The translations under genes and the position numbers were made by a program. A DNA stretch of 64,000 bases. Source: Planctomycetota bacterium. GTDB lineage: Bacteria > Planctomycetota > MHYJ01 > JACQXL01. This document shows positions 9,459 through 58,850 of this stretch, one piece after another (the first letter of the stretch is position 1; every line of letters starts with the position of its first letter). Where the stretch lies: contig JACRIK010000021.1 of NCBI GenBank assembly GCA_016235865.1, positions 97,226-161,225 on the forward strand, read 5' to 3'. The notes below the pieces were generated by a model. That model was not told the DNA's origin and ran no database searches. It was given only the letters and a program-made list of their open reading frames with translations.

Positions 9459-10304
9459 ATGAAAACCTTAATGCAATGTACTATTAAAAAGCCTGTTTTC
9501 TGTGAAGGCATCGGACTTTTTACCGGGCAGAAAGTGAAATTGTGTTTCCAGCCCGCTAAAGTTAATGATGGCATAACATTCATTGCCAATGGCGCCAGAA
9601 TTTCTGCTTCTATCAGTAACGTGCTGACCCAATACCGCCGCAATGCCATCGGGAAAGACGGCATCATTATCGAGACTATAGAACACCTAATGGCAGCTTT
9701 GAACGGATTAGGTATTACCAATATTGATATCGAGATTTATTCTGATAGTCAATCTGCAACCTATGAGATACCGAATACGGACGGCAGCGCTAAGTTATTT
9801 GTGGATTTATTATTAAAAGCCGGTATTGAGGAACAGCGCGCACCCAGGAGAGTCCTGCGAATAAATGCGCCGGTTAATTACAGGGATGGCGAGTGCTCTA
9901 TTATTGCCTTGCCAGCCGCTGACGATTCATTAACTGTTGACTATACCTTTTCGCATAGCGCCGTGATTATCGGCAATCAGCATTTATCAGTGGAACTGGT
10001 ACAGGATAACTTTATTTCGGAGATAGCCCCGGCCCGAACGTTTTGTATGGCCGACGAAGTGGCGTCTCTTCAGGCACAGGGAATAGGTAAGTCAGCCAAT
10101 TATCAGAATGTTCTGGTGGTGGATAATGACAAAATCGTCCAGAACACCTTGCGCTTTAAAGACGAATTCGTGCGCCATAAAATACTTGATTTAATCGGCG
10201 ATTTATACTTGTTAAATGCCTCGTTATTTGCTAAAATAGCAGCGGTTAAGACCGGCCATAGACAAAATGTAGAATTTGTCAGGAAATTGGTTGGATTACT
10301 CTAA
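9459..10304 (+). CDS. lpxC: UDP-3-O-acyl-N-acetylglucosamine deacetylase
   Basis: 281 aa; LpxC family; gene order lpxC-fabZ-lpxA. Confidence 0.85.
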   Translation: MKTLMQCTIKKPVFCEGIGLFTGQKVKLCFQPAKVNDGITFIANGARISASISNVLTQYRRNAIGKDGIIIETIEHLMAALNGLGITNIDIEIYSDSQSATYEIPNTDGSAKLFVDLLLKAGIEEQRAPRRVLRINAPVNYRDGECSIIALPAADDSLTVDYTFSHSAVIIGNQHLSVELVQDNFISEIAPARTFCMADEVASLQAQGIGKSANYQNVLVVDNDKIVQNTLRFKDEFVRHKILDLIGDLYLLNASLFAKIAAVKTGHRQNVEFVRKLVGLL

Positions 10305-16275: not shown

Positions 16276-16452
16276 ATGGGTTTTTTCTTTTATCTTATCG
16301 GATTTCTTGCCATTGGAGTGTTTTTTGTTATGCTTTGGAAAACCAGGTCCCGGAAAGAGGCCATGAGGCAAGAAGACGAGTGGATGCAGAGTTTGCCTCC
16401 TGAAGAGTGGGGTAGTAGTGAACATGAAGAAGAAGACGAAGAAAAAGATAGC
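16276..16452 (+). CDS. possible small membrane protein (58 aa, below ORF-track cutoff)
   Basis: ATG at 16276, hydrophobic 'GFFFYLIGFLAIGVFFVMLW' followed by acidic tail; overlaps annotated topA start in another frame. Confidence 0.25.
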
Positions 16453-18988
16453 TAAGGCTTCTGGTGCAGGCGCTAAGGCCAAACCGGCCACCAAGATTAA
16501 GTTCAAGTCGCCAGTTGATGCCTCTGGCGCCCCTGAAGCAAAATCAGAACCGGTAGCTAAGGTCAAAAAAGCCAAGGTGGTGTTGCCGGCAACGAAAGGT
16601 AAGTCACTGGTGATTGTCGAATCGCCGGCCAAAATCAAAACCATCAGCAAGATTCTGGGCAGCGATTATGTCATCACCTCGTCTTACGGCCATATCCGTG
16701 ACCTGCCCAAGAGCAAGCTCGGCATAGATATCGAGGACAATTTCAAGCCCGGCTATATCATCATGCGCAAGCAGATAAAGAATGTCAACGCGCTGAAAAA
16801 GATGGCGGCCGCGTCCAATGGCGTGTATCTGGCCACTGATCCGGACCGGGAAGGCGAGGCCATTGCCTGGCACCTGTCCGAGATTCTGGGCATGCCGCCA
16901 GATAAGTTCTGGCGGGTGAGTTTTGACGAGATTACCGCGCCGGCCGTTAAGGAGGCGTTCAGCCATCCCCGTAAGATTTCCATAACCCTGGTCAATGCCC
17001 AGCAGACCCGGCGTTTCCTGGACCGGATTATGGGCTATAAATTATCACCGCTCCTCTGGGACAAGATAACCCGGGGCCTGTCAGCCGGCCGGGTCCAGTC
17101 CGTGGCGCTTCGGCTGGTGGTGGAACGGGAAAGGGCCATCCGGTCATTCAAGCCCCAGGAGCACTGGAAAATAACGGCTGACCTGTCCCACGCGATGCCG
17201 CATGGCTGTCGCGCCCATCAGGGCAAGGACATATTTAACGCGACACTTTACAAACTTAACGACTCCAATGTCGGCAGTCCGATGGACGGCAGCGCCAATA
17301 TCTGGATTGGCTCGGAAACCGAATCCAAGAAACTGGTCGAGCGCCTCGGGAAAAGCGATTTCAAGGTGCTGGGTATAACCGAACGCGAAAGCAACCAGTA
17401 TCCGGCGCCGCCGTTTATCACCAGCACGCTCCAGCAGACCGCGTCCATCAAGCTCAATTTCAGCCCGCGCAAGACCATGATGATTGCCCAGCAATTATAT
17501 GAAGGCGTGGAACTGCCGGAAGGCCCGGCCGGCCTGATTACCTATATGCGCACCGACTCGGTCCGGGTCAGCGAGGTGGCTATCAAGGAATGCCGGAGTT
17601 TTATCGCTAAGCACTTCGGAGAGGGGTTGCTTAATCCGGAAGCCCGGCATTACAAGCCCAGCAAACAGTCCCAGCAGGCGCACGAGGCCATCCGGCCGAC
17701 CTATCCGGCCAAGATGCCGGATGATATCGCCCAATACCTGACCAGAGACCAGTATAAACTCTACACCCTTATCTGGAAACGGTTCACGGCCACCCAGATG
17801 AAACCGGCGGCCTGGAAGAGCAAATCAGTGGAGATTGAATCGCAGTTGGCGCCAGCACTGGAACTGGAGGTCTTCTCCAATGACAAGCGGCACAAGCTCA
17901 TCGCCGAAAAGATACTCGCCTCAGTTGGGTCCGGCCAGAACGGGGCAGTGCTGGAAAAAATCATAACCATATTAAGCCGGAACAAGCAGGACGATGAGAC
18001 GGCCCGGAAAATCATTGAAGCCCTGGGGCAGAATGTGGAAGACAAGGCATTAACCGCCCGGATAATCGGCATCATGGATGAAACCGTGGACGGTGCTCTG
18101 ATACTTGAGAAGATGAACGTAGCCAGATGCCTTTGGAGCGCCAATGAACGCCGGCTGGTGGCTCCGGGATTTATGACCCTCTATAATCCCGAGGAGCAGT
18201 TATTGCCCGGCTTAAAAGAATCCGGCAAGCTGGACGTAGCGCAAATCATCCCGGCCCAGTCGTTTACCGAACCGCCGCCTTATTACAACGAGGCATCGCT
18301 GGTCAAGGTCCTGGAAAAATACGGCATCGGCCGCCCGTCCACCTACGCGCCGATTATTGCCACCATCCAGGACCGGGGCTATGTCATCAAGCGGGCCCGG
18401 CAGTTGACGCCGACTGATTTAGGCCTGCTGGTCAACGACAAACTCGTGCCGTTCTTTGAGGATATCATCAATACCCAGTTCACGGCCCGGATAGAAGAGG
18501 AACTGGATTTGATTGAGGAAGGCCAGAAGGAATTGGTCCCGACATTAAAGGAATTCTACGCGCCGTTTGCCAAGGACTTGGAAAAGGCCCAGGCCGAGAT
18601 GACCAGCGAAAAGGGCAAGGAGAGCGGCGGGAAATGCCCACTGTGCAATAGTCCGATTGTCGAACGCTGGTCCCGGTTCGGCAAATTCCTATCCTGTTCG
18701 GCATTCCCGGAATGCCGGCATACCGCATCGCTCAAGCCAAAGGCTGAGCCGGAAAAGACCGACCAGGTCTGCGAAAAATGCGGCAAGCCCATGGTCATCC
18801 GGTTCAACCGCCGGCGCAGAACCCGGTTCATCGCCTGCTCCGGATATCCGGACTGCAAAAACGCCAAGCCGTTCAAGAAACCCGGTGAAGAGGCAGAAGC
18901 GGCCCCGGAGCCGGCCCGGAAACAAAGCCCGTCGGTTGAAGAGACCGAAGCCAACGGCACTTCAGCAGAAGAGACAGCCGCTAACTAA
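16418..18988 (+). CDS. topA: DNA topoisomerase I
   Basis: 856 aa; TOPRIM 'VIVESPAKIKTI', C-terminal Zn ribbons; Lys-rich N-terminal extension (true start uncertain). Confidence 0.9.
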   Translation: MNMKKKTKKKIAKASGAGAKAKPATKIKFKSPVDASGAPEAKSEPVAKVKKAKVVLPATKGKSLVIVESPAKIKTISKILGSDYVITSSYGHIRDLPKSKLGIDIEDNFKPGYIIMRKQIKNVNALKKMAAASNGVYLATDPDREGEAIAWHLSEILGMPPDKFWRVSFDEITAPAVKEAFSHPRKISITLVNAQQTRRFLDRIMGYKLSPLLWDKITRGLSAGRVQSVALRLVVERERAIRSFKPQEHWKITADLSHAMPHGCRAHQGKDIFNATLYKLNDSNVGSPMDGSANIWIGSETESKKLVERLGKSDFKVLGITERESNQYPAPPFITSTLQQTASIKLNFSPRKTMMIAQQLYEGVELPEGPAGLITYMRTDSVRVSEVAIKECRSFIAKHFGEGLLNPEARHYKPSKQSQQAHEAIRPTYPAKMPDDIAQYLTRDQYKLYTLIWKRFTATQMKPAAWKSKSVEIESQLAPALELEVFSNDKRHKLIAEKILASVGSGQNGAVLEKIITILSRNKQDDETARKIIEALGQNVEDKALTARIIGIMDETVDGALILEKMNVARCLWSANERRLVAPGFMTLYNPEEQLLPGLKESGKLDVAQIIPAQSFTEPPPYYNEASLVKVLEKYGIGRPSTYAPIIATIQDRGYVIKRARQLTPTDLGLLVNDKLVPFFEDIINTQFTARIEEELDLIEEGQKELVPTLKEFYAPFAKDLEKAQAEMTSEKGKESGGKCPLCNSPIVERWSRFGKFLSCSAFPECRHTASLKPKAEPEKTDQVCEKCGKPMVIRFNRRRRTRFIACSGYPDCKNAKPFKKPGEEAEAAPEPARKQSPSVEETEANGTSAEETAAN

Positions 18989-18991
18989 CGA
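18878..18991. repeat. direct repeat L (topA 3' end), paired with 19949-20047
   Basis: 72-bp core identical but 2 mismatches to 19949-20020, both end in ctaactaacga. Confidence 0.85.
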
Positions 18992-19103
18992 CCTTACCCC
19001 TAAAGACATTCCGATTGACAATTCTTGCCCGGCAAAGGCCAAAATGGTAGGATGGAATAAATGGGTCTTCCGGGAATTCCACTGGTTTCGGAAGGAGTAA
19101 ATT

Positions 19104-19943
19104 ATGAATAATGAACTTGTGCCGGTTACAAAAATAGCCGTTTTTCGCGGCCGGAAAATACGCAAAACCATCCACAAAAACGAATGGTGGTTTTCTATAG
19201 AAGATGTAGTTCGGGTCCTTACAGATTCATTACAACCAGCCGGATATATTAAGGATATGCGGCGCCGGGACCCGGAGATAGCCAAAGGGTGGGGGCAAAT
19301 TGCCACCCCCCTTTTGATTCAAACAGCCGGCGGTCCGCAAAAGGTGAATTGCGCTAATACCGAAGGCATGTTCCGTATTATCCAGTCCATTCCCTCGCCC
19401 AAAGCCGAGCCGTTCAAACGCTGGCTGGCTAAGGTGGGCTACGAGCGGGTCCGGGAGATAGAAGACCCGGAACTCGGCACCAAACGCACCCGGGCATTGT
19501 ATAAAGCCAAGGGCTACAGCGATGACTGGATAGAAAAACGGATGCGCGGCATTGCCATCCGCGAGGAACTGACCGACGAATGGAAAAAGCACGGAGTTGA
19601 AAGGGACAAGGAATACGAGATTCTGACCGCGGAAATCTCCCAAGCGACATTCGGGCTTACCCCGAGCCAGTATAAGAAACTCAAAAACCTGAAGCGTCAA
19701 AACCTGCGCGACCATATGACCGACCTGGAACTGATTTTCTCTATGTTAGGCGAGGCGTCAACCACCCAGATTACCAAGGTGGAACATCCGGACGGATTTG
19801 TGGAAAACAAGAAAGTGGCCCGGCGGGGCGGCAATGTGTCCGGAATAGCCCGCAAGAAACTGGAGCAGGAAACCGGCGGCCGGGTGGTCAGTCCGCAAAA
19901 CTATCTGGCAAATCAGCAGAATAAACGGCTAAAAGATAAGTAA
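19104..19943 (+). CDS. DinD-like DNA-damage-inducible protein with Bro-N-like N-terminal domain
   Basis: 279 aa; N-term 'KIRKTIHKNEWWFSIEDVVRVL' Bro-N-like; C-terminal region resembles E. coli DinD. Confidence 0.6.
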   Translation: MNNELVPVTKIAVFRGRKIRKTIHKNEWWFSIEDVVRVLTDSLQPAGYIKDMRRRDPEIAKGWGQIATPLLIQTAGGPQKVNCANTEGMFRIIQSIPSPKAEPFKRWLAKVGYERVREIEDPELGTKRTRALYKAKGYSDDWIEKRMRGIAIREELTDEWKKHGVERDKEYEILTAEISQATFGLTPSQYKKLKNLKRQNLRDHMTDLELIFSMLGEASTTQITKVEHPDGFVENKKVARRGGNVSGIARKKLEQETGGRVVSPQNYLANQQNKRLKDK

Positions 19944-19948
19944 TGGCA

Positions 19949-20047
19949 AAACCCGGTGAAGAGGCAGAAGCGGCCCCGGAGCCGGCCCGGAAACAAAGCC
20001 CGTCAGTGGAAGAGACCGAAAGCAGCGACGAAGCTACTAACTAACGA
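19949..20047. repeat. direct repeat R (orphan copy of topA 3' tail)
   Basis: copy of aaacccggtgaagaggcagaagcggccccggagccggcccggaaacaaagcccgtc...gagaccgaa...ctaactaacga. Confidence 0.85.
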
Positions 20048-20163
20048 ATCAATTCCCACAACCAGTTAATTGCTGGACATTCCGGGCGGGATTTTCTAAG
20101 TTTAAGGCATAAAATCAACCTCTATCAATAAAGAATTAGTGTATCCCCGGAATTAGAATTCGT

Positions 20164-22026
20164 ATGAATTTTCTGCGTAAAATATTTAAGAAGAAAGCGC
20201 AGGTTGATCCTGCCAATGATCCTAACATGGTAAAGGCCTATGATGGATATGGTCGGGAAATATTTATCTCCAAACAGCAATGGAAGGACAAGGTACTCCT
20301 GAAGAATCTAGAGGAGAAACGCAACAATCCTAATCAGCTTTATGATTGGCTTTTCTTGGCACTGAAAGATGGATTTGTGCAAGATATTGTTCCTTATGCC
20401 GAGCATTTATGGCGCACTGACCCTATTCCATCCAGGGGAGCCGCAGTACTCGGTATTGTCTATATGAAGAATAACCGCTTGGATGAGGCGGAACGAGTAT
20501 TAAATGATTTCCTGTCAGCACATGGCGATAATGGGGTTGTTCTGACTAACTTGGCAAAGGTATACGATAAACGGGGGGATAAAGCAAAAGCCGAATCAAT
20601 TCTTTGGCATGCCTTGGAGGTTGACCCTAATCAGGAAAATGGGCTTGCTTGGTATATTGCAATTCAGAGTGAGCGGGGAGGCGAAGCGTCGGTACTCGAT
20701 GCCTATCATCATATCGCCGCTTGGCCCAAAAGCTGGAGGGTCCAGCTTTGGTTGGCGCGTGAGGCGCTTGCACGCAAAGATTTGCCAGCTGCGGAGGCAT
20801 TTTACGCGGAAGTATTTGCCAGGGCTGAGCGTCCGGTTCCCGATTATGTCCTTACACAAATAAGTGGAGACTTAGGTAAGAACGGATATCTGGCAGAGAT
20901 GTTTCGTCTGGTCGAGCCTCATTTTGACCCGGCTATTCACGGCTTTAATGTTGGAAATAATCTTATAATGGCCAATCGTGAACTTGGTCGCACAGATATT
21001 GCCCGGCGTATTCTAAATCAGCTTTATGCCCAGAAACGTCCTGATTGGCAGCATGCGTTAAAGTACTGGGACACTGAACTTGCCAAAGACGAAGTAGCGC
21101 GCAAGGCGCAACAAAACCCCGGACAATCTATTGTTTTCATTTCAACAGAAGGTCCGTTATGGGCAAGTAAGGAATCCCCATTTGCAGTTCTCATGCCGGC
21201 TAAATCTGGTAACACACCGCAGATTGCCGTTTTGGGAAGCATGGCCTTGTTTTCGGAGTTATCCAAAAAGCCTGTGCCTCAACTCAGCGATGCTCCGGGC
21301 CGTATCAGCCGGATTGTTGCTCTTTTTCTGGCTGAAAAAATCCACCTTCAAACCGATGCGGTTGGTATAGCTTTAACTCCTTGGGCGCAAAAACTAGGGT
21401 TTGCTGTTTTTGGTAATCCCTACGGCGACAAGGATCTCTGTGAAGTTGCATGTAAGAGTGTGAAAGTTCCGCATTTTATCGTTGCTGTCAATTTTGATGC
21501 TACCCAGTTAAAATGGAAAATGATACTACGCTTATTGAGGGTGAGTGATTGTGTGCGTGTTGCAGAAGAACAGATTGAAGCCGATCCGCTGAATCCCGGA
21601 CCAGCTATTGAGCTTTTAGCTCAAACGCTTCAACAGTTGCTTGCTAAATACGCCGGGGTGCATATTACGGCACATCCGCAATGGTACCAGAATCTATCCG
21701 GACCGGATTTATCTGACTATCTTCTGCGGCTTGAGCAACAACTTGCAGTAATATGTAAAAATCTCGATTTCCTCGAAGGAGGAGGTTTGTTCGGGGAACA
21801 TGAAATCATTGATGGTGTTTTGCAACTCTGTCTAAGTCAGCCGGCAAGCCAATTGGTTAGAATGGTTCTGGCCCAAACGCTCCGGCAGATGAGCAAATTG
21901 CACCCGGAACTTATTTCCGAATATAAAGATAAGATTAATTTACTCCAACGGACTCATCTTCTGACAGGAGAAGTTGGCGAATTGATTAATAAAGCCATTA
22001 ATCAGACAATGACACGGACGGCTTAG
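20164..22026 (+). CDS. hypothetical protein, TPR-like N-terminal region; atypical codon usage
   Basis: 620 aa ORF; codon usage (cgt/gca/ctt, lower GC3) differs from neighbours. Confidence 0.55.
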   Translation: MNFLRKIFKKKAQVDPANDPNMVKAYDGYGREIFISKQQWKDKVLLKNLEEKRNNPNQLYDWLFLALKDGFVQDIVPYAEHLWRTDPIPSRGAAVLGIVYMKNNRLDEAERVLNDFLSAHGDNGVVLTNLAKVYDKRGDKAKAESILWHALEVDPNQENGLAWYIAIQSERGGEASVLDAYHHIAAWPKSWRVQLWLAREALARKDLPAAEAFYAEVFARAERPVPDYVLTQISGDLGKNGYLAEMFRLVEPHFDPAIHGFNVGNNLIMANRELGRTDIARRILNQLYAQKRPDWQHALKYWDTELAKDEVARKAQQNPGQSIVFISTEGPLWASKESPFAVLMPAKSGNTPQIAVLGSMALFSELSKKPVPQLSDAPGRISRIVALFLAEKIHLQTDAVGIALTPWAQKLGFAVFGNPYGDKDLCEVACKSVKVPHFIVAVNFDATQLKWKMILRLLRVSDCVRVAEEQIEADPLNPGPAIELLAQTLQQLLAKYAGVHITAHPQWYQNLSGPDLSDYLLRLEQQLAVICKNLDFLEGGGLFGEHEIIDGVLQLCLSQPASQLVRMVLAQTLRQMSKLHPELISEYKDKINLLQRTHLLTGEVGELINKAINQTMTRTA

Positions 22027-22077
22027 TGATACGACTTTCTAGTCCAGGGACACAACAAATTATCCTCCATCCTTACA

Positions 22078-22455
22078 GCGACCATAGAGTATCCCCTAAG
22101 CGGGGGCGGTCTATCCCCTAAGCGGGGATGGGCTATCCCCTAAGCGGGGAGGGGCTATCCCCTAAGCGGGGACGGGCTATCCTCTAAGCGGGGAGGGACT
22201 ACCCCCTAAGCGAGGGTGGACTATCCCCTAAGCTGGGAGGGGCTACCCCCTAAGCGGGGTGGGGCTACCCCCTAAGCGGGGATGGGCTATCCCCTAAGCG
22301 AGGTGGGGCTATCCCCTATGCGAGGTAGGGCTATCCCCTAAGCGAGGTGGGACTATTCCCTAAGCCGGGACGGGCTATCCCCTAAGCGGGGACGGACTAT
22401 CCCCTAAGCCGGGAGGGGCTACCCCCTAAGCGGGGATGGGCTATCCCCTATGCGA
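22078..22455. repeat. tandem array, ~17 copies of 22-bp unit CTATCCCCTAAGCGGGGATGGG
   Basis: head-to-tail copies with point variation, no spacers; stops in all frames. Confidence 0.9.
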
Positions 22456-22661
22456 GGATGGGGTATCACGGGTGCGGGGATGGGGGGAGGGGGGAGGGGG
22501 GATACCCCACCCCCCACCGTCTGAACCGGTTTTTGAGATAATAACTTTATGGATAAATGGTTACGCCAAAACCCGAGTGATTTTGGTAGCAGATTTCAGC
22601 CCGGATTACTTATTTAACGAGACATTAGACGACTTTTGGGGGTCGATATTGGCCTTTTGTT

Positions 22662-23636
22662 CTATGTCCCGCCAGAAGATAGGGCCAATGCGGCTGCGCC
22701 TAAGAGGCCGGCATCCTCGCCTAATTTGGCCGGGACAATCAGGGGCTTGCGATAGGGGTGTTTCATTATACTTGCCTTGACTACCTGACGCAGGGGTTTG
22801 AACAGAATCTCACCGGCCTGAGCCACTCCGCCGCCGATTACCACCATCTCCGGGTCAAAGATGTTAATCAGCGATGCGCAGGCCAGACCGAGATAATGGG
22901 CGGTGTCTTGAACAACTTCGCGGGCGAGTTTGTCGCCTTTTCTGGCTTTGTCAAATATTGTTTTAGCAGTAATGTCGTGCGTCTTGCGTCCTACGTCTTG
23001 CGTCCGGACGCCCAACGCATAACGCCCAACGCATAACGCATAGCGTTCTACAATGGCCGGTGCGCTGACCAGCGCTTCCAGATGCCCGGGTTTCCCGCAA
23101 CTGCAGTCCGGGCCATTGGGGTCTACGTTCATATGCCCGATTTCAGCGGCATAGAAATGCGAGCCGCGATATATCTGGTTGTCAATGATAATCCCGCCGC
23201 CTACGCCGGTGCCTAAGGTCAGGCAGATGAGATTCGTTGCTTTCTTCCCAGCGCCCCAGCATTTCTCACCCCAGCCGGCCAAATTGGCATCGTTGTCTAT
23301 GAAGACGGGTATTTTGAGCGCCTTCTCAAGCTCCTGTTTTACCTTCGTGCCTTTCCAGCCAATCAGATTGGGGGAGTCAGCCAGGATAATGCCTCTTTCA
23401 GCGTCAATAGAGCCGGGACAGGCGAGGCCGACACCGCGAACGGAATGACGAATGACGAATGACGAATGACGAATAACTTGATTGACTAATTGGGCAATGA
23501 GCCGGATGCCTTGTTTGCCATTGGGTGCTTTCGAGAAAGAGACCTTTTTCCTGGCCTTGATATGGCCGTTTTGGTCCACCAGCGCCGCGGTGATGTGGCT
23601 GCCGCCTAAATCGATACCAATAGCAAATTTGGTCAT
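22662..23636 (-). CDS. ROK family sugar kinase (glucokinase-like)
   Basis: 324 aa; 'KFAIGIDLGGSHITAALVD', CxCGxxGHLE zinc motif; contains in-frame repeat insertions. Confidence 0.8.
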   Translation of the reverse strand: MTKFAIGIDLGGSHITAALVDQNGHIKARKKVSFSKAPNGKQGIRLIAQLVNQVIRHSSFVIRHSVRGVGLACPGSIDAERGIILADSPNLIGWKGTKVKQELEKALKIPVFIDNDANLAGWGEKCWGAGKKATNLICLTLGTGVGGGIIIDNQIYRGSHFYAAEIGHMNVDPNGPDCSCGKPGHLEALVSAPAIVERYALCVGRYALGVRTQDVGRKTHDITAKTIFDKARKGDKLAREVVQDTAHYLGLACASLINIFDPEMVVIGGGVAQAGEILFKPLRQVVKASIMKHPYRKPLIVPAKLGEDAGLLGAAALALSSGGT

Positions 23637-43879: not shown

Positions 43880-44575
43880 ATGTCCGACTTCACTAAGAAA
43901 TCCTGGAAGTGCGTTGATATCAAGGATATTGATTGGGGCCAGAGGTTTGAGTTTAACGAGGATAAGGTGGATACCTATGTGTCGGACCTGCCCGGGGTCT
44001 ATCGCCTGGTTTATCGGACAATCCATGAGGGCAAGGATGGGTATTTTGTATTTTATAACGGCGAGACGGATGATTTATACAAGACACTGTGCGGGCATCT
44101 TAATCTCCTGAAGATTGAACTGCCACCGCCCAAGAATCCCTATAATGCCCCGGAGCATTGCATACAAAAGACCCTGCAGGAATACCCGTGCTATTTCAGG
44201 TTTATAATAGTCCGTTCAAAAAAGGAGCGGGTCCGGATTAAGAAGGAGCTTGATGATTCCATTATCCCCAAGGGCGAGATGGAATTCGCGGCCTGGGCCG
44301 ATAATTTCTTCCGGGTGTTGTCGGCCAACGCGGACAAGTGGTTTCCTCCGGCGGAGCGTCCTGCTGATTTTAGCGATGCTCTTGATAAATTTAATGACAA
44401 GCACAAGAAGTTTATGGCGTCCTATGATGAGCATCTCAAGGTGCAGATTAATCTTAGGGCCGCTGAGAAGAAACTGAAAGACGCCGAGCAGAAACTCAAG
44501 GATGAACAGCAGAAACGCAAGGAAGCTGAGAATGAAGGCGAGGAGTGGAAAGAGGGGAAGAATAAGCCGGACTGA
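43880..44575 (+). CDS. hypothetical protein with C-terminal coiled coil
   Basis: 231 aa ORF; weak GIY-YIG-like 'PGVYRL...GYFVFYNGETDDLYKTL'. Confidence 0.45.
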   Translation: MSDFTKKSWKCVDIKDIDWGQRFEFNEDKVDTYVSDLPGVYRLVYRTIHEGKDGYFVFYNGETDDLYKTLCGHLNLLKIELPPPKNPYNAPEHCIQKTLQEYPCYFRFIIVRSKKERVRIKKELDDSIIPKGEMEFAAWADNFFRVLSANADKWFPPAERPADFSDALDKFNDKHKKFMASYDEHLKVQINLRAAEKKLKDAEQKLKDEQQKRKEAENEGEEWKEGKNKPD

Positions 44576-44745
44576 TGATTAAAGCAACCCCCTGGACGGC
44601 TCAGGGGGACTGACCGATGACTGAAGCAACCCCCTGGATGACTCAGGGGGACTGACGGATGACTGAAGCAACCCCCTGGATGGCTCAGGGGGGCTGCGGA
44701 ATGACTGAATAAACCCCCTGGACGGTCCAGGGGAGCCATTTGCGG
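44574..44745. repeat. 4 tandem copies of ~42-bp unit each containing a CCCCCTGG..CCAGGGGG hairpin
   Basis: tgactgaagcaaccccctggatgactcagggggactgacgga x4 with point variation. Confidence 0.85.
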
Positions 44746-46435: not shown

Positions 46436-48460
46436 ATGAGTAAAAGGTTAGTTGCCATATTTGTTATCGGTATATTTTTGAGTTTTGGCATAATATCAAT
46501 GGATACTTACGGCTGGTGCCCGAATCCGCCCAAGATGGGTGGATACACTCCGCCGCCCAGGCCCAAGCCGCCTGACCCTGCGCCAGAGGCGCCTAAGGAA
46601 CAACCTAGGCCGCCCGAGGCGCCCAAGGAGGCGCCCAAGACACCCGAGTCACCCAAGGAACAGCCCAAACAGTCCGAGACACCCAAGGAGTCCGAGACGC
46701 CAAAGCAACCCGAGGCGCCCAAGGACCAGCCGGCAACCCCGCCGGTTCCGGCAACACCGGAAGCTCCTAAGGATACTACGCCACCACCGCCTCCTCCTCC
46801 GACCACGGATACGCCTTTTGACCCCAATAGTTCTGTCGGAGGCACAGGAGGCAAGAGGCCAACCAGCGGAGGCGCATCTGTTACCCGTCCGCCATTGGAT
46901 TTCGGACTGCAACCCCGCATTCAGGCAATGACCCAGGGCACCTCTAATCTCCTGGGATATGTTGAACCCTGGGAGGTCTGGTGGACCCGTAACCGGGCCA
47001 AGTACCTGAAATTCCGCCAGCCCATAGAATTTATCAGTAAAACAAACGACGGCTATGTTAACGTGGCCAAGGAATACGACGAGATTTTCAATCTCTTCAA
47101 CAAAGCGCTGCACGACAAGGACCTCTATGTCCGGGTGGCGGCCGCCCAGGGATTGAGCAAGATGGGCGATAACAAGGTCAATCCCATCCTTAAAAAGGCA
47201 TTTTACGATGAGAAGCAGTTGTACGTGGAGAATAACATTATTTTTGCCATGGGCCTGATGGGCGATGCGACAAACGCCATTGTCCTGAAAGAGATAGCGG
47301 TCAATAAGCAGGAGACCGAGATAAACCGCGCCTATGCCATCCTGGCTTTAGGGTATGTCAAGAACAATGAAGAGGTGATTAAGGTATTAAAGGAATTAGC
47401 CGGCCAGCCGGACAAGGATGAGGTGGTGGCCAGCGCGGCCCTGGCACTGGGCAATCTTAAAGAAGCGTCCGCCGTTCCGATCCTGGCCAAACTTATCCAG
47501 CGGGGCGTTCTTTACCAGGGTGAGAAAAGTGACCGCAAGGTTAGGACGTATGCGGCCTTGGGCCTTGGCCGCATCGGCACTAAAGAGGCCGTGAACGAGC
47601 TGAAGAAATCGTTGGACGATAAGGATAAGGATGTCCAGGAATGCGTGGCCATTGCCCTGGGCTCAACCAAATTGCCCGAGGCCCTGAATCCGTTGATTCA
47701 ACTGCTATCAGACCGCGATTTGTCGGTCCGGGGATTCGCCGCCATTTCTCTAAGCCAGATATTGGATAAGGCGGTGTATCCTTTGCTATCTGATGCTTAC
47801 CGGAATGCCAAAGACCCGCAGGTAGACGGTATGATTGTCCTGGCCATGGGCTTGAACGGCGATAAGCGGGCCATCCCTGAACTGCAGAAGATTCTCACCA
47901 CCAAGACCAAGCGGTCCCTGATTAAAGGTGCAGCGGCTATTGCCCTGGGGCTCTTGAAGGATACCTCATCCGTCCAGATTATCTCCGACCTGCTGGACAA
48001 GAGCAATGACCCGGTGCTGGCGGCTCACCTGACCCTGAGTTTGGGGATGATCGGCGATATTAAGGCCGTGGATGTCATCAAGAAGAAGTGGGCGGATGTC
48101 GGAAGCAAGACGACCAATATTGCCTATACCAATATGGCCGTGGCCCTAACGATGCTGGGCGCCAGGGATGAGCTGGTGCTGCCGATGATTCGCAAGCACT
48201 TTGATAAGAAAGAAATGACCGCCCTGCGCCAGCATGCGATTCATTCGGCCGGACTGATCGGCGGCAAGGATATTATCAGCGATGTGGCCAAATTATATGA
48301 TGACGAGACCAACCCGCAGGTGCGTAATTACATCGTCAGTTCGCTGGGTTTTGTGGTTGACGTCAATGAAACCCCGCTGCTTACCAAGGTTACCGCAGAC
48401 AATGACTACAATGTCTTTATGTGGATTATGGAACACCTTCTGCCGCTGCCGCTGTGGTAA
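46436..48460 (+). CDS. secreted HEAT-repeat (PBS-lyase-type) protein with Pro/Lys/Glu-rich N-terminal linker
   Basis: 674 aa; signal peptide; 'PEAPKEQPRPPEAPKEAPKTPESPKE' repeats; multiple 'VRxxAAxALGxxGD' HEAT-like repeats. Confidence 0.75.
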   Translation: MSKRLVAIFVIGIFLSFGIISMDTYGWCPNPPKMGGYTPPPRPKPPDPAPEAPKEQPRPPEAPKEAPKTPESPKEQPKQSETPKESETPKQPEAPKDQPATPPVPATPEAPKDTTPPPPPPPTTDTPFDPNSSVGGTGGKRPTSGGASVTRPPLDFGLQPRIQAMTQGTSNLLGYVEPWEVWWTRNRAKYLKFRQPIEFISKTNDGYVNVAKEYDEIFNLFNKALHDKDLYVRVAAAQGLSKMGDNKVNPILKKAFYDEKQLYVENNIIFAMGLMGDATNAIVLKEIAVNKQETEINRAYAILALGYVKNNEEVIKVLKELAGQPDKDEVVASAALALGNLKEASAVPILAKLIQRGVLYQGEKSDRKVRTYAALGLGRIGTKEAVNELKKSLDDKDKDVQECVAIALGSTKLPEALNPLIQLLSDRDLSVRGFAAISLSQILDKAVYPLLSDAYRNAKDPQVDGMIVLAMGLNGDKRAIPELQKILTTKTKRSLIKGAAAIALGLLKDTSSVQIISDLLDKSNDPVLAAHLTLSLGMIGDIKAVDVIKKKWADVGSKTTNIAYTNMAVALTMLGARDELVLPMIRKHFDKKEMTALRQHAIHSAGLIGGKDIISDVAKLYDDETNPQVRNYIVSSLGFVVDVNETPLLTKVTADNDYNVFMWIMEHLLPLPLW

Positions 48461-58768: not shown

Positions 58769-58850
58769 GCGCGGGTGGTGGAACTGGCAGACACGTAGGT
58801 TTTAGGAGCCTATGCCTCACGGCTTGCGGGTTCAACTCCCGCCCCGCGCA
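58769..58850 (+). tRNA. tRNA-Leu (anticodon TAG)
   Basis: acceptor gcgcggg/cccgcgc, anticodon stem taggt/gccta with loop ttTAGga, long variable arm, T-loop ttcaact; no encoded CCA. Confidence 0.7.

Follow-up and report, generated by a model that had tools for sequence, protein, structure and literature searches.

A probable laterally acquired single-gene islet downstream of topA in a Planctomycetota genome encodes a TPR protein with a CadC-like C-terminal half

Two described systems come close to the gene studied here. The sensor domain of CadC of Escherichia coli is periplasmic, and in the protein chain it is preceded by a winged-helix DNA-binding domain and a membrane helix. PrrC, an anticodon nuclease, is the product of an accessory gene nested between the hsd genes of a type I restriction-modification (R-M) operon. 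Here we analyze an open reading frame (ORF) at 20164-22026 of a 64,000-nucleotide (nt) stretch of DNA, hereafter the window, which comes from the metagenome-assembled genome (MAG) of a Planctomycetota bacterium (assembly GCA_016235865.1, contig JACRIK010000021.1, positions 97,226 to 161,225). Its product of 620 amino acids (aa) joins a TPR solenoid to a module with the fold of the CadC sensor domain, and one clade of its relatives is found inside type I R-M operons. Below, we present the evidence that this gene was acquired laterally, describe the protein and its family, and discuss what role it may have.

Composition and genomic setting of the 620-aa gene

The initial annotation of this DNA held that codon usage changes abruptly and G+C content at third codon positions (GC3) drops in the 620-aa ORF, and a scan of both along the window shows that this is the case. 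With a GC3 of 0.415, the ORF ranks lowest among the 48 long, non-overlapping ORFs on which the scan was based; the remaining 47 have a mean of 0.609 (standard deviation 0.070, minimum 0.457), which places it at z = -2.8. The value is uniform along the ORF (0.36-0.48 per 100 codons). Synonymous codon choice was compared with the pooled rest of the window by a G test, calibrated by multinomial simulation with the same amino-acid composition. The ORF reaches z = 17.3 in this test and the runner-up ORF 8.1, and the codon-usage z-score is a stronger signal of foreignness than GC3. The four codons in which the ORF had been said to be rich are all enriched over the rest of the window: CGT (0.29 against 0.09), GCA (0.25 against 0.11), CTT (0.27 against 0.11) and TTT (0.76 against 0.48). 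ACC (0.11 against 0.58) and GGC (0.17 against 0.50) are strongly depleted, and the dominance of CGG, CCG and GCC ascribed to the rest of the window is found there as well (0.36, 0.55 and 0.52, respectively).

The ORF lies in a segment of low GC content that runs from about 20000 to 22090, where GC is 0.38-0.49 in 200-nt windows, with a short exception around 20600-20900 (up to 0.53-0.55). On its left the segment directly adjoins a repeat of the topA 3' tail, and on its right some 60 nt separate it from a 22-nt tandem array, in which GC jumps to 0.57-0.67. Its edges match the intergenic boundaries of the 620-aa gene, whose start codon is placed as in its homologs. The flanks are thus those originally described, a Bro-N ("DinD-like") gene on one side and the array on the other (Table 1).

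Comparison with sister genomes points in the same direction. The source MAG (Planctomycetes bacterium HZA49_06445) is the only one for which an identical protein has been recorded, and the best non-self homolog in a search of 5.8 billion clustered proteins is 61-62% identical. The flanking genes, on the other hand, have orthologs that are 70-92% identical in Planctomycetota MAG219 (locus L008) and 69-72% identical in a second MAG (L009). Both loci are collinear with the window up to the topA stop codon and not beyond. The topA 3' end is a synteny breakpoint in all three related Planctomycetota genomes, each with different genes downstream. Beyond the array, the window continues with a ROK glucokinase gene on the minus strand and then genes for PFOR subunits. 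This side is also conserved in MAG219 (accD, the POR gamma, delta, alpha and beta genes, and ROK), where it is located on a separate contig (L168) from the topA block. The genes next after ROK are a radical-SAM gene and a permease gene in L168, and gidA in L169. The presence or absence of the 620-aa gene was checked at these positions: it is missing at the ends of both synteny blocks in MAG219, as well as from L009 and L169, and no relative of the protein is encoded in the approximately 52 kb of sister-genome sequence. A 639-aa unannotated gene near the ROK block of MAG219 was considered as an ortholog and rejected, as it encodes an unrelated repeat protein. The Bro-N gene, the 620-aa gene and the array therefore sit at a junction that is peculiar to this genome.

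Lateral acquisition of the 620-aa gene is well supported, because its codons are foreign, it has no ortholog at the level of identity seen for its neighbours, it is absent from the block ends of the sister genome, and its family is patchily distributed. Composition, missing sister orthologs and the scatter over phyla agree, and the horizontal origin that had been proposed for this gene is very probably correct. We are accordingly highly confident that it is an acquired accessory gene.

The immediate surroundings of the segment have features of their own. The final ~110 nt of topA are present twice, at 18878-18991 and 19949-20047, and the copies share a core of 79 nt that is 94% identical, together with a common stop context. 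Read in frame, the second copy gives KPGEEAEAAPEPARKQSPSVEETE...N*. The two copies bracket the Bro-N gene alone and leave the 620-aa ORF outside, and there is no third copy in the window. The Bro-N gene has a host-like GC3 of 0.60; its locus resembles the product of a Campbell-type or site-specific event that placed a single gene in the topA tail, without an integrase. Every unit of the array contains a CCCC-N5-GGGG mini-palindrome, and the array is followed by G-rich and then C-rich sequence, with a G-rich run to ~22510. The array unit occurs nowhere else in the window and in none of the 172 related loci examined. No Rfam family matched across 18800-22800, array included, and scans of the leader region for promoters and terminators gave nothing convincing, performing no better than shuffled expectation.

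The protein, its family and the clade embedded in R-M operons

The structure was predicted with AlphaFold2 from an alignment of 50 sequences, and the model is of high confidence (pLDDT 89.6, pTM 0.79). It divides the protein into an N-terminal hairpin, a solenoid of seven to eight TPR-type repeats, an alpha/beta domain and a C-terminal helical bundle (Table 1), of which the last two span aa ~323-497 and aa ~513-619 in the model. The earlier description of the protein as TPR-like is therefore right for aa ~37-317, where tandem ~34-aa helix-turn-helix repeats are seen by TPR profiles, and not for the other half, which is confidently modelled as a two-lobed module like the CadC periplasmic domain. 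Pfam and NCBIfam detect TPR repeats around aa 90-160, with weak matches near aa 270-300, and have no match over aa 318-620. A profile search of the PDB with the protein returned TPR matches only, and PHROGs gave a weak match (E 1.1e-4) over the TPR part to a family of unknown function. No curated family covers the C-terminal half, and no description of it was found in the literature searched. The protein has no catalytic signature, as had been noted, and neither a signal peptide nor a membrane helix (maximum Kyte-Doolittle value 1.2); a hydrophobic N-terminal stretch is present in only 2 of 50 family members.

Conservation is concentrated in the TPR part. When 50 homologs are compared, 91 of its 281 positions show a conservation of 90% or more, and the conserved stretches include the motifs LTNLAK, DPNQxNG, SWRxxLWLAR, SGDLG, HGxxVGNNLI and RPDW; the alpha/beta domain is less conserved. 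This pattern suggests that the TPR part may form a constrained binding groove for a conserved partner, and that the second module may be more adaptable. Among the conserved residues of the putative groove are N129, N156/Q157, W191/R192 and N265/N266.

A profile search of 1.84 billion representatives delimited a family of 670 clusters at 50% identity (E<=1e-30). Nearly all members are 590-660 aa long and match end to end. The longer ones (676-850 aa) were considered as domain fusions, but they contain no extra Pfam domain and their starts are probably mis-called. Named hosts belong to at least four phyla and include Planctomycetota (among them Planctomicrobium piriforme), a Gammaproteobacteria MAG, Thermoanaerobaculia and Verrucomicrobiae. 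Neighbourhoods were sampled at 84 loci, 68 of them non-redundant; clustering of the flanking ORFs, and comparison of 149 immediate neighbours with Pfam and PADLOC, revealed no universal partner gene. GC3 in the family ranges from 0.30 to 0.87, so that most copies have ameliorated to their hosts. At 7 of 56 loci the homolog is more than 0.10 below its flanks in GC3, with a difference of -0.195 in P. piriforme, and the mean difference is -0.036. This is the pattern of a solitary accessory gene that is old and has been transferred repeatedly.

At several loci the homolog is located directly downstream of a gene for a class II aminoacyl-tRNA synthetase. This gene is thrS at L109 (1068-3116), L110, L126 and L108, where it overlaps the start of the homolog by 1 nt, and proS at L176 (5239-6948), where it ends 52 nt upstream. 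The adjacency may be a coincidence or reflect shared synteny within a lineage.

In one clade of the family, the gene is part of a type I R-M operon, with hsdR on one side and hsdS on the other, and stop and start codons usually overlap by 4 nt. The loci concerned are L116/118/119, L127, L128, L129, L132 and L175, and the proteins are 54-86% identical to one another. In addition, hsdR lies 2 kb from the homolog on a Verrucomicrobiae contig. The smallest clade that contains these members in a neighbour-joining tree has 30 leaves and includes non-R-M contexts. At least seven non-redundant loci carry type I R-M plus cyclic oligonucleotide-based antiphage signalling system (CBASS), HerA, PD-Lambda-3 or PDC-S22 genes, and most of the 68 have unrelated neighbours, these being raw counts. 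The association with defence is real for part of the family. For the gene in the window it is suggestive: there are no hsd genes in the window, and the upstream neighbour is the Bro-N gene, which matches the candidate defence gene PDC-S13. A search of the literature for a TPR protein embedded in a type I R-M system found nothing relevant.

Table 1. Features of the topA-ROK junction in the window, segments of the 620-aa protein, and homologs located in type I R-M operons
Feature	Locus	Positions	Strand	Remarks
topA	window	16418-18988		upstream of the Bro-N gene
Bro-N ("DinD-like") gene, 279 aa	window	19104-19943		PADLOC PDC-S13 match 2e-112; phrog_15286 match
topA 3' tail, second copy	window	19949-20047	+	left edge of the low-GC segment; frame intact to a TAA stop
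AT-rich leader, 116 nt	window	20048-20163	+	GC about 0.38-0.40; part of the low-GC segment
ORF, 620-aa soluble protein	window	20164-22026	+	ATG start; lowest GC3 and most deviant codon usage in the window
N-terminal beta-hairpin, aa 22-36	window	20227-20271	+	AlphaFold2 model; D27, Y29, G30 and E32 conserved in the family
TPR-type helical solenoid, aa 37-317	window	20272-21114	+	most conserved part of the protein
Alpha/beta domain, aa ~318-500	window	21115-21663	+	TolB-N / PelC / LpoB-like fold
C-terminal helical bundle, aa ~501-620	window	21664-22023	+	with the alpha/beta domain resembles the two-lobed CadC periplasmic sensor domain
22-nt tandem array, 17.2 copies	window	22090-22467	.	consensus TATCCCCTAAGCGGGGAGGGGC; GC about 0.65; right edge of the segment
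Type I R-M with homolog	L116	440-10021		downstream cargo: CBASS cyclase and TIR-STING effector
Type I R-M with homolog	L128			downstream cargo: Mrr-like nuclease and HerA
Type I R-M with homolog	L127, L132			downstream cargo: PD-Lambda-3_A homologs
Type I R-M with homolog	L129			KilA-N PDC-S22 gene immediately upstream of the homolog
Type I R-M with homolog	L175	4697-13470		Fic gene immediately upstream; hsdR split into fragments

Proposed role and alternative explanations

The explanation that we put forward is that the low-GC segment is a single-gene islet gained by lateral transfer. It lies at a lineage-specific junction of two conserved blocks, one ending in topA and the other comprising ROK, PFOR and accD. 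The product is a soluble cytoplasmic protein without an enzymatic domain, belonging to an uncharacterised and strongly conserved family of solitary genes. Its conserved TPR groove would bind a conserved protein or peptide partner, its more variable CadC-like two-lobed module would bind a ligand or a second protein, and the protein would act as an adaptor or sensor, not as a catalyst. In our view the most likely biological setting is an accessory role related to conflict or defence, as part of the family is located in type I R-M operons and defence islands and the gene in the window lies beside a candidate defence gene (PDC-S13). This is the weakest step of the explanation. The analysis shows composition, boundaries, synteny, family distribution and fold, and from these the mode of binding, the partner and the biological role are inferred. 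Taken as a whole, a laterally acquired islet encoding a cytoplasmic adaptor or sensor, likely in a conflict setting, is in our judgement the best available explanation, and one for which belief and doubt are evenly balanced. Of its parts, a non-enzymatic binding protein seems to us rather probable, and a role in defence or conflict doubtful.

Several observations weigh against this explanation. With regard to acquisition, a clean empty-site comparison is impossible, since synteny is broken at the 3' end of topA in the sister genomes and the MAGs are incomplete. The segment is not surrounded by any signature of mobility: an integrase, a tRNA gene and a flanking repeat pair were all looked for and not found, no ORF between topA and ROK has the size of an integrase or transposase gene, and the sole tRNA gene of the window is at 58769. 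The family was found neither in IMG/VR contigs nor in phage records or PLSDB plasmids, and hence no vector is known. Also, the closest homologs (58-60% identical; L088 and L090) have a GC3 of 0.72-0.74, and because they sit in contexts of high GC3, a donor lineage is not nameable. With regard to a defence role, the R-M clade is only 43-45% identical to the window protein, most loci have ordinary non-defence neighbours (e.g., thrS, proS, sulfatase and RraA-like genes), and PADLOC has no match for the 620-aa protein or for the R-M-embedded homolog in L116.

The alternative that survives best concerns the function. The protein might be a housekeeping-type adaptor, either a co-chaperone-like or a translation-linked TPR protein, with no role in conflict. 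Its TPR part does resemble the peptide-binding TPR domains of the co-chaperones Sgt2, PP5 and Sti1/Hop, and the high conservation of this region across phyla suggests a universal partner. The class II aminoacyl-tRNA synthetase genes directly upstream of some homologs (thrS at L109, L110 and L126, and proS at L176), and the prevalence of non-defence neighbourhoods, would also be in line with this idea. Yet an accessory gene would account better for the patchy distribution, the foreign composition and the lack of the gene in the sister genomes. Also against a housekeeping adaptor, family members are repeatedly found tightly integrated into type I R-M operons with defence cargo that varies. We regard a housekeeping role as unlikely.

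A second alternative is that the gene is native and was inherited vertically, its odd codons being due to low expression or relaxed codon selection. GC content is heterogeneous across the window (0.42 to 0.59), and the ORF at 9459-10304, which has the second-lowest GC3 of the 48 (0.457), has a syntenic ortholog in MAG219 that is 75% identical. For these two reasons, low GC3 alone does not prove a foreign origin. Moreover, the slight mean deficit in GC3 of homologs relative to their flanks hints at a bias intrinsic to the family, and mobility genes are not present. However, the codon deviation of the 620-aa ORF is twice that of any other ORF, and the GC edges coincide with intergenic boundaries. 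Furthermore, the gene is missing at both block ends in MAG219 and has no homolog above 62% identity, while its neighbours have 70-92% identical orthologs in NCBI MAGs of the same database. Taken together, this makes vertical inheritance improbable.

The initial annotation went further than acquisition of the gene, and joined it to the Bro-N gene and the array in one horizontally acquired module, which could be pictured as a mobile module integrated at the 3' end of topA. All three elements do sit at the junction unique to this genome, the two copies of the topA tail recall an att site, and L129, too, has a candidate defence gene (PDC-S22, KilA-N) immediately upstream of a member of the family. 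The combination nevertheless does not hold together. The copies of the topA tail enclose only the 1-kb Bro-N gene, with the 620-aa ORF outside, and the window has no further copy. The host-like GC3 of the Bro-N gene differs from that of the TPR gene (0.60 and 0.415, respectively). A conserved Bro-N partner was found at 0 of the 68 non-redundant homolog loci, and there is hardly any similarity between the Bro-N protein of the window and the KilA-N protein encoded at L129 (E 0.006 over 54 aa). Nor does the array appear to be part of a module: its unit, absent from all 172 loci, adjoins none of the homologs examined. No integrase, tRNA gene or repeat pair delimits the 2-kb segment itself. A three-part module thus seems to us about as improbable as vertical inheritance. 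Finally, the contig might be a chimera in which assembly joined a 2-kb foreign piece at repeats. In favour of this, the source is a MAG, there are repeats at both ends of the segment (the topA tail copies and the 22-nt array), and the sister MAG has the two flanking blocks on separate contigs. On the other side, both flanks are of the same lineage with their best orthologs in MAG219, a foreign insert of 2 kb between them would need two independent mis-joins, the record of the identical protein places it on one contig, 241,667 bp long, and neither repeat recurs elsewhere in the window. We find a chimera hardly credible.

Returning to lateral acquisition and an adaptor or sensor function, a bolder version can be formulated. 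The family might represent an undescribed, effector-less cytoplasmic sensor or adaptor of conflict systems, with the R-M clade as a translationally coupled third or fourth operon component (hsdR-X-hsdS) and the copy in the window as a recently transferred, free-standing version beside a Bro-N candidate defence gene. We consider this version unlikely, but it suggests what the component might do, namely gate restriction, redirect it, or link it with co-resident systems. Should the link with R-M prove functional, R-M biology would gain a regulatory or sensor component that is not an enzyme, and there would be a way to approach the numerous genes in defence islands that are annotated as "TPR repeat protein".

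For this genome the significance of the islet is modest, in that one accessory gene marks a hotspot of rearrangement and insertion just downstream of topA. Islets of this kind, with a single gene, are ordinary features of genomes, and the hsdR-X-hsdS clade is more worth following than the locus in the window. The wider value lies in the family, with its about 670 clusters, its fixed architecture of 600-650 aa and its unannotated C-terminal half, which in the model resembles the fold of a periplasmic sensor put to a new use in the cytoplasm.

Three other features of the window were noted. A part of topA of ~115 aa (aa ~477-591; 17846-18190) is missing from tblastn alignments to topA of distant Planctomycetota (L027, L028 and L030) and present in the close sisters, and may be a lineage-specific insertion. 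Two further tandem repeats are a 42-nt unit in 3.9 copies between ORFs (44570-44733) and an imperfect 30/18-nt repeat (46612-46731) inside the ORF at 46436-48460.

Comparison with known systems

The closest fold to the C-terminal half is that of the CadC periplasmic sensor domain of E. coli (PDB 3LY7, 3LY8 and 3LY9), which has the same two lobes, one alpha/beta and one a helical bundle. The resemblance does not extend to the sequence, as identity in the structural alignment is 11-12% and there is no match between sequence profiles. Neither does it extend to the topology: in the window protein the module follows a TPR solenoid, is cytoplasmic and has no output domain, whereas a ToxR-like arrangement would require a hydrophobic segment, of which there is none, and a winged helix-turn-helix domain in the N-terminal half, which is TPR instead. 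In view of these differences in sequence and topology, the protein should not be filed as a member of the CadC family. The alpha/beta lobe by itself shares its fold type with the N-terminal domain of TolB and with PelC, LpoB, CsgG and FlgT; those proteins are periplasmic or associated with the outer membrane, whereas the window protein has no export signal.

The TPR part can be likened to the TPRs of O-GlcNAc transferase and of the co-chaperones Sgt2, Hop/Sti1 and PP5. Unlike in those proteins, no partner enzyme or chaperone domain is attached to it. As regards gene organization, the nearest parallel is with PrrC-type accessory genes, since the gene is likewise flanked by hsdR and hsdS in one clade of the family, where stop and start codons overlap and the defence cargo is variable. 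The gene in the window departs from that parallel in being beside no hsd gene, and its product has no nuclease or effector domain. We rate the 620-aa protein as a probable binding protein based on TPRs, in which a sensor fold of envelope type is employed in the cytoplasm.
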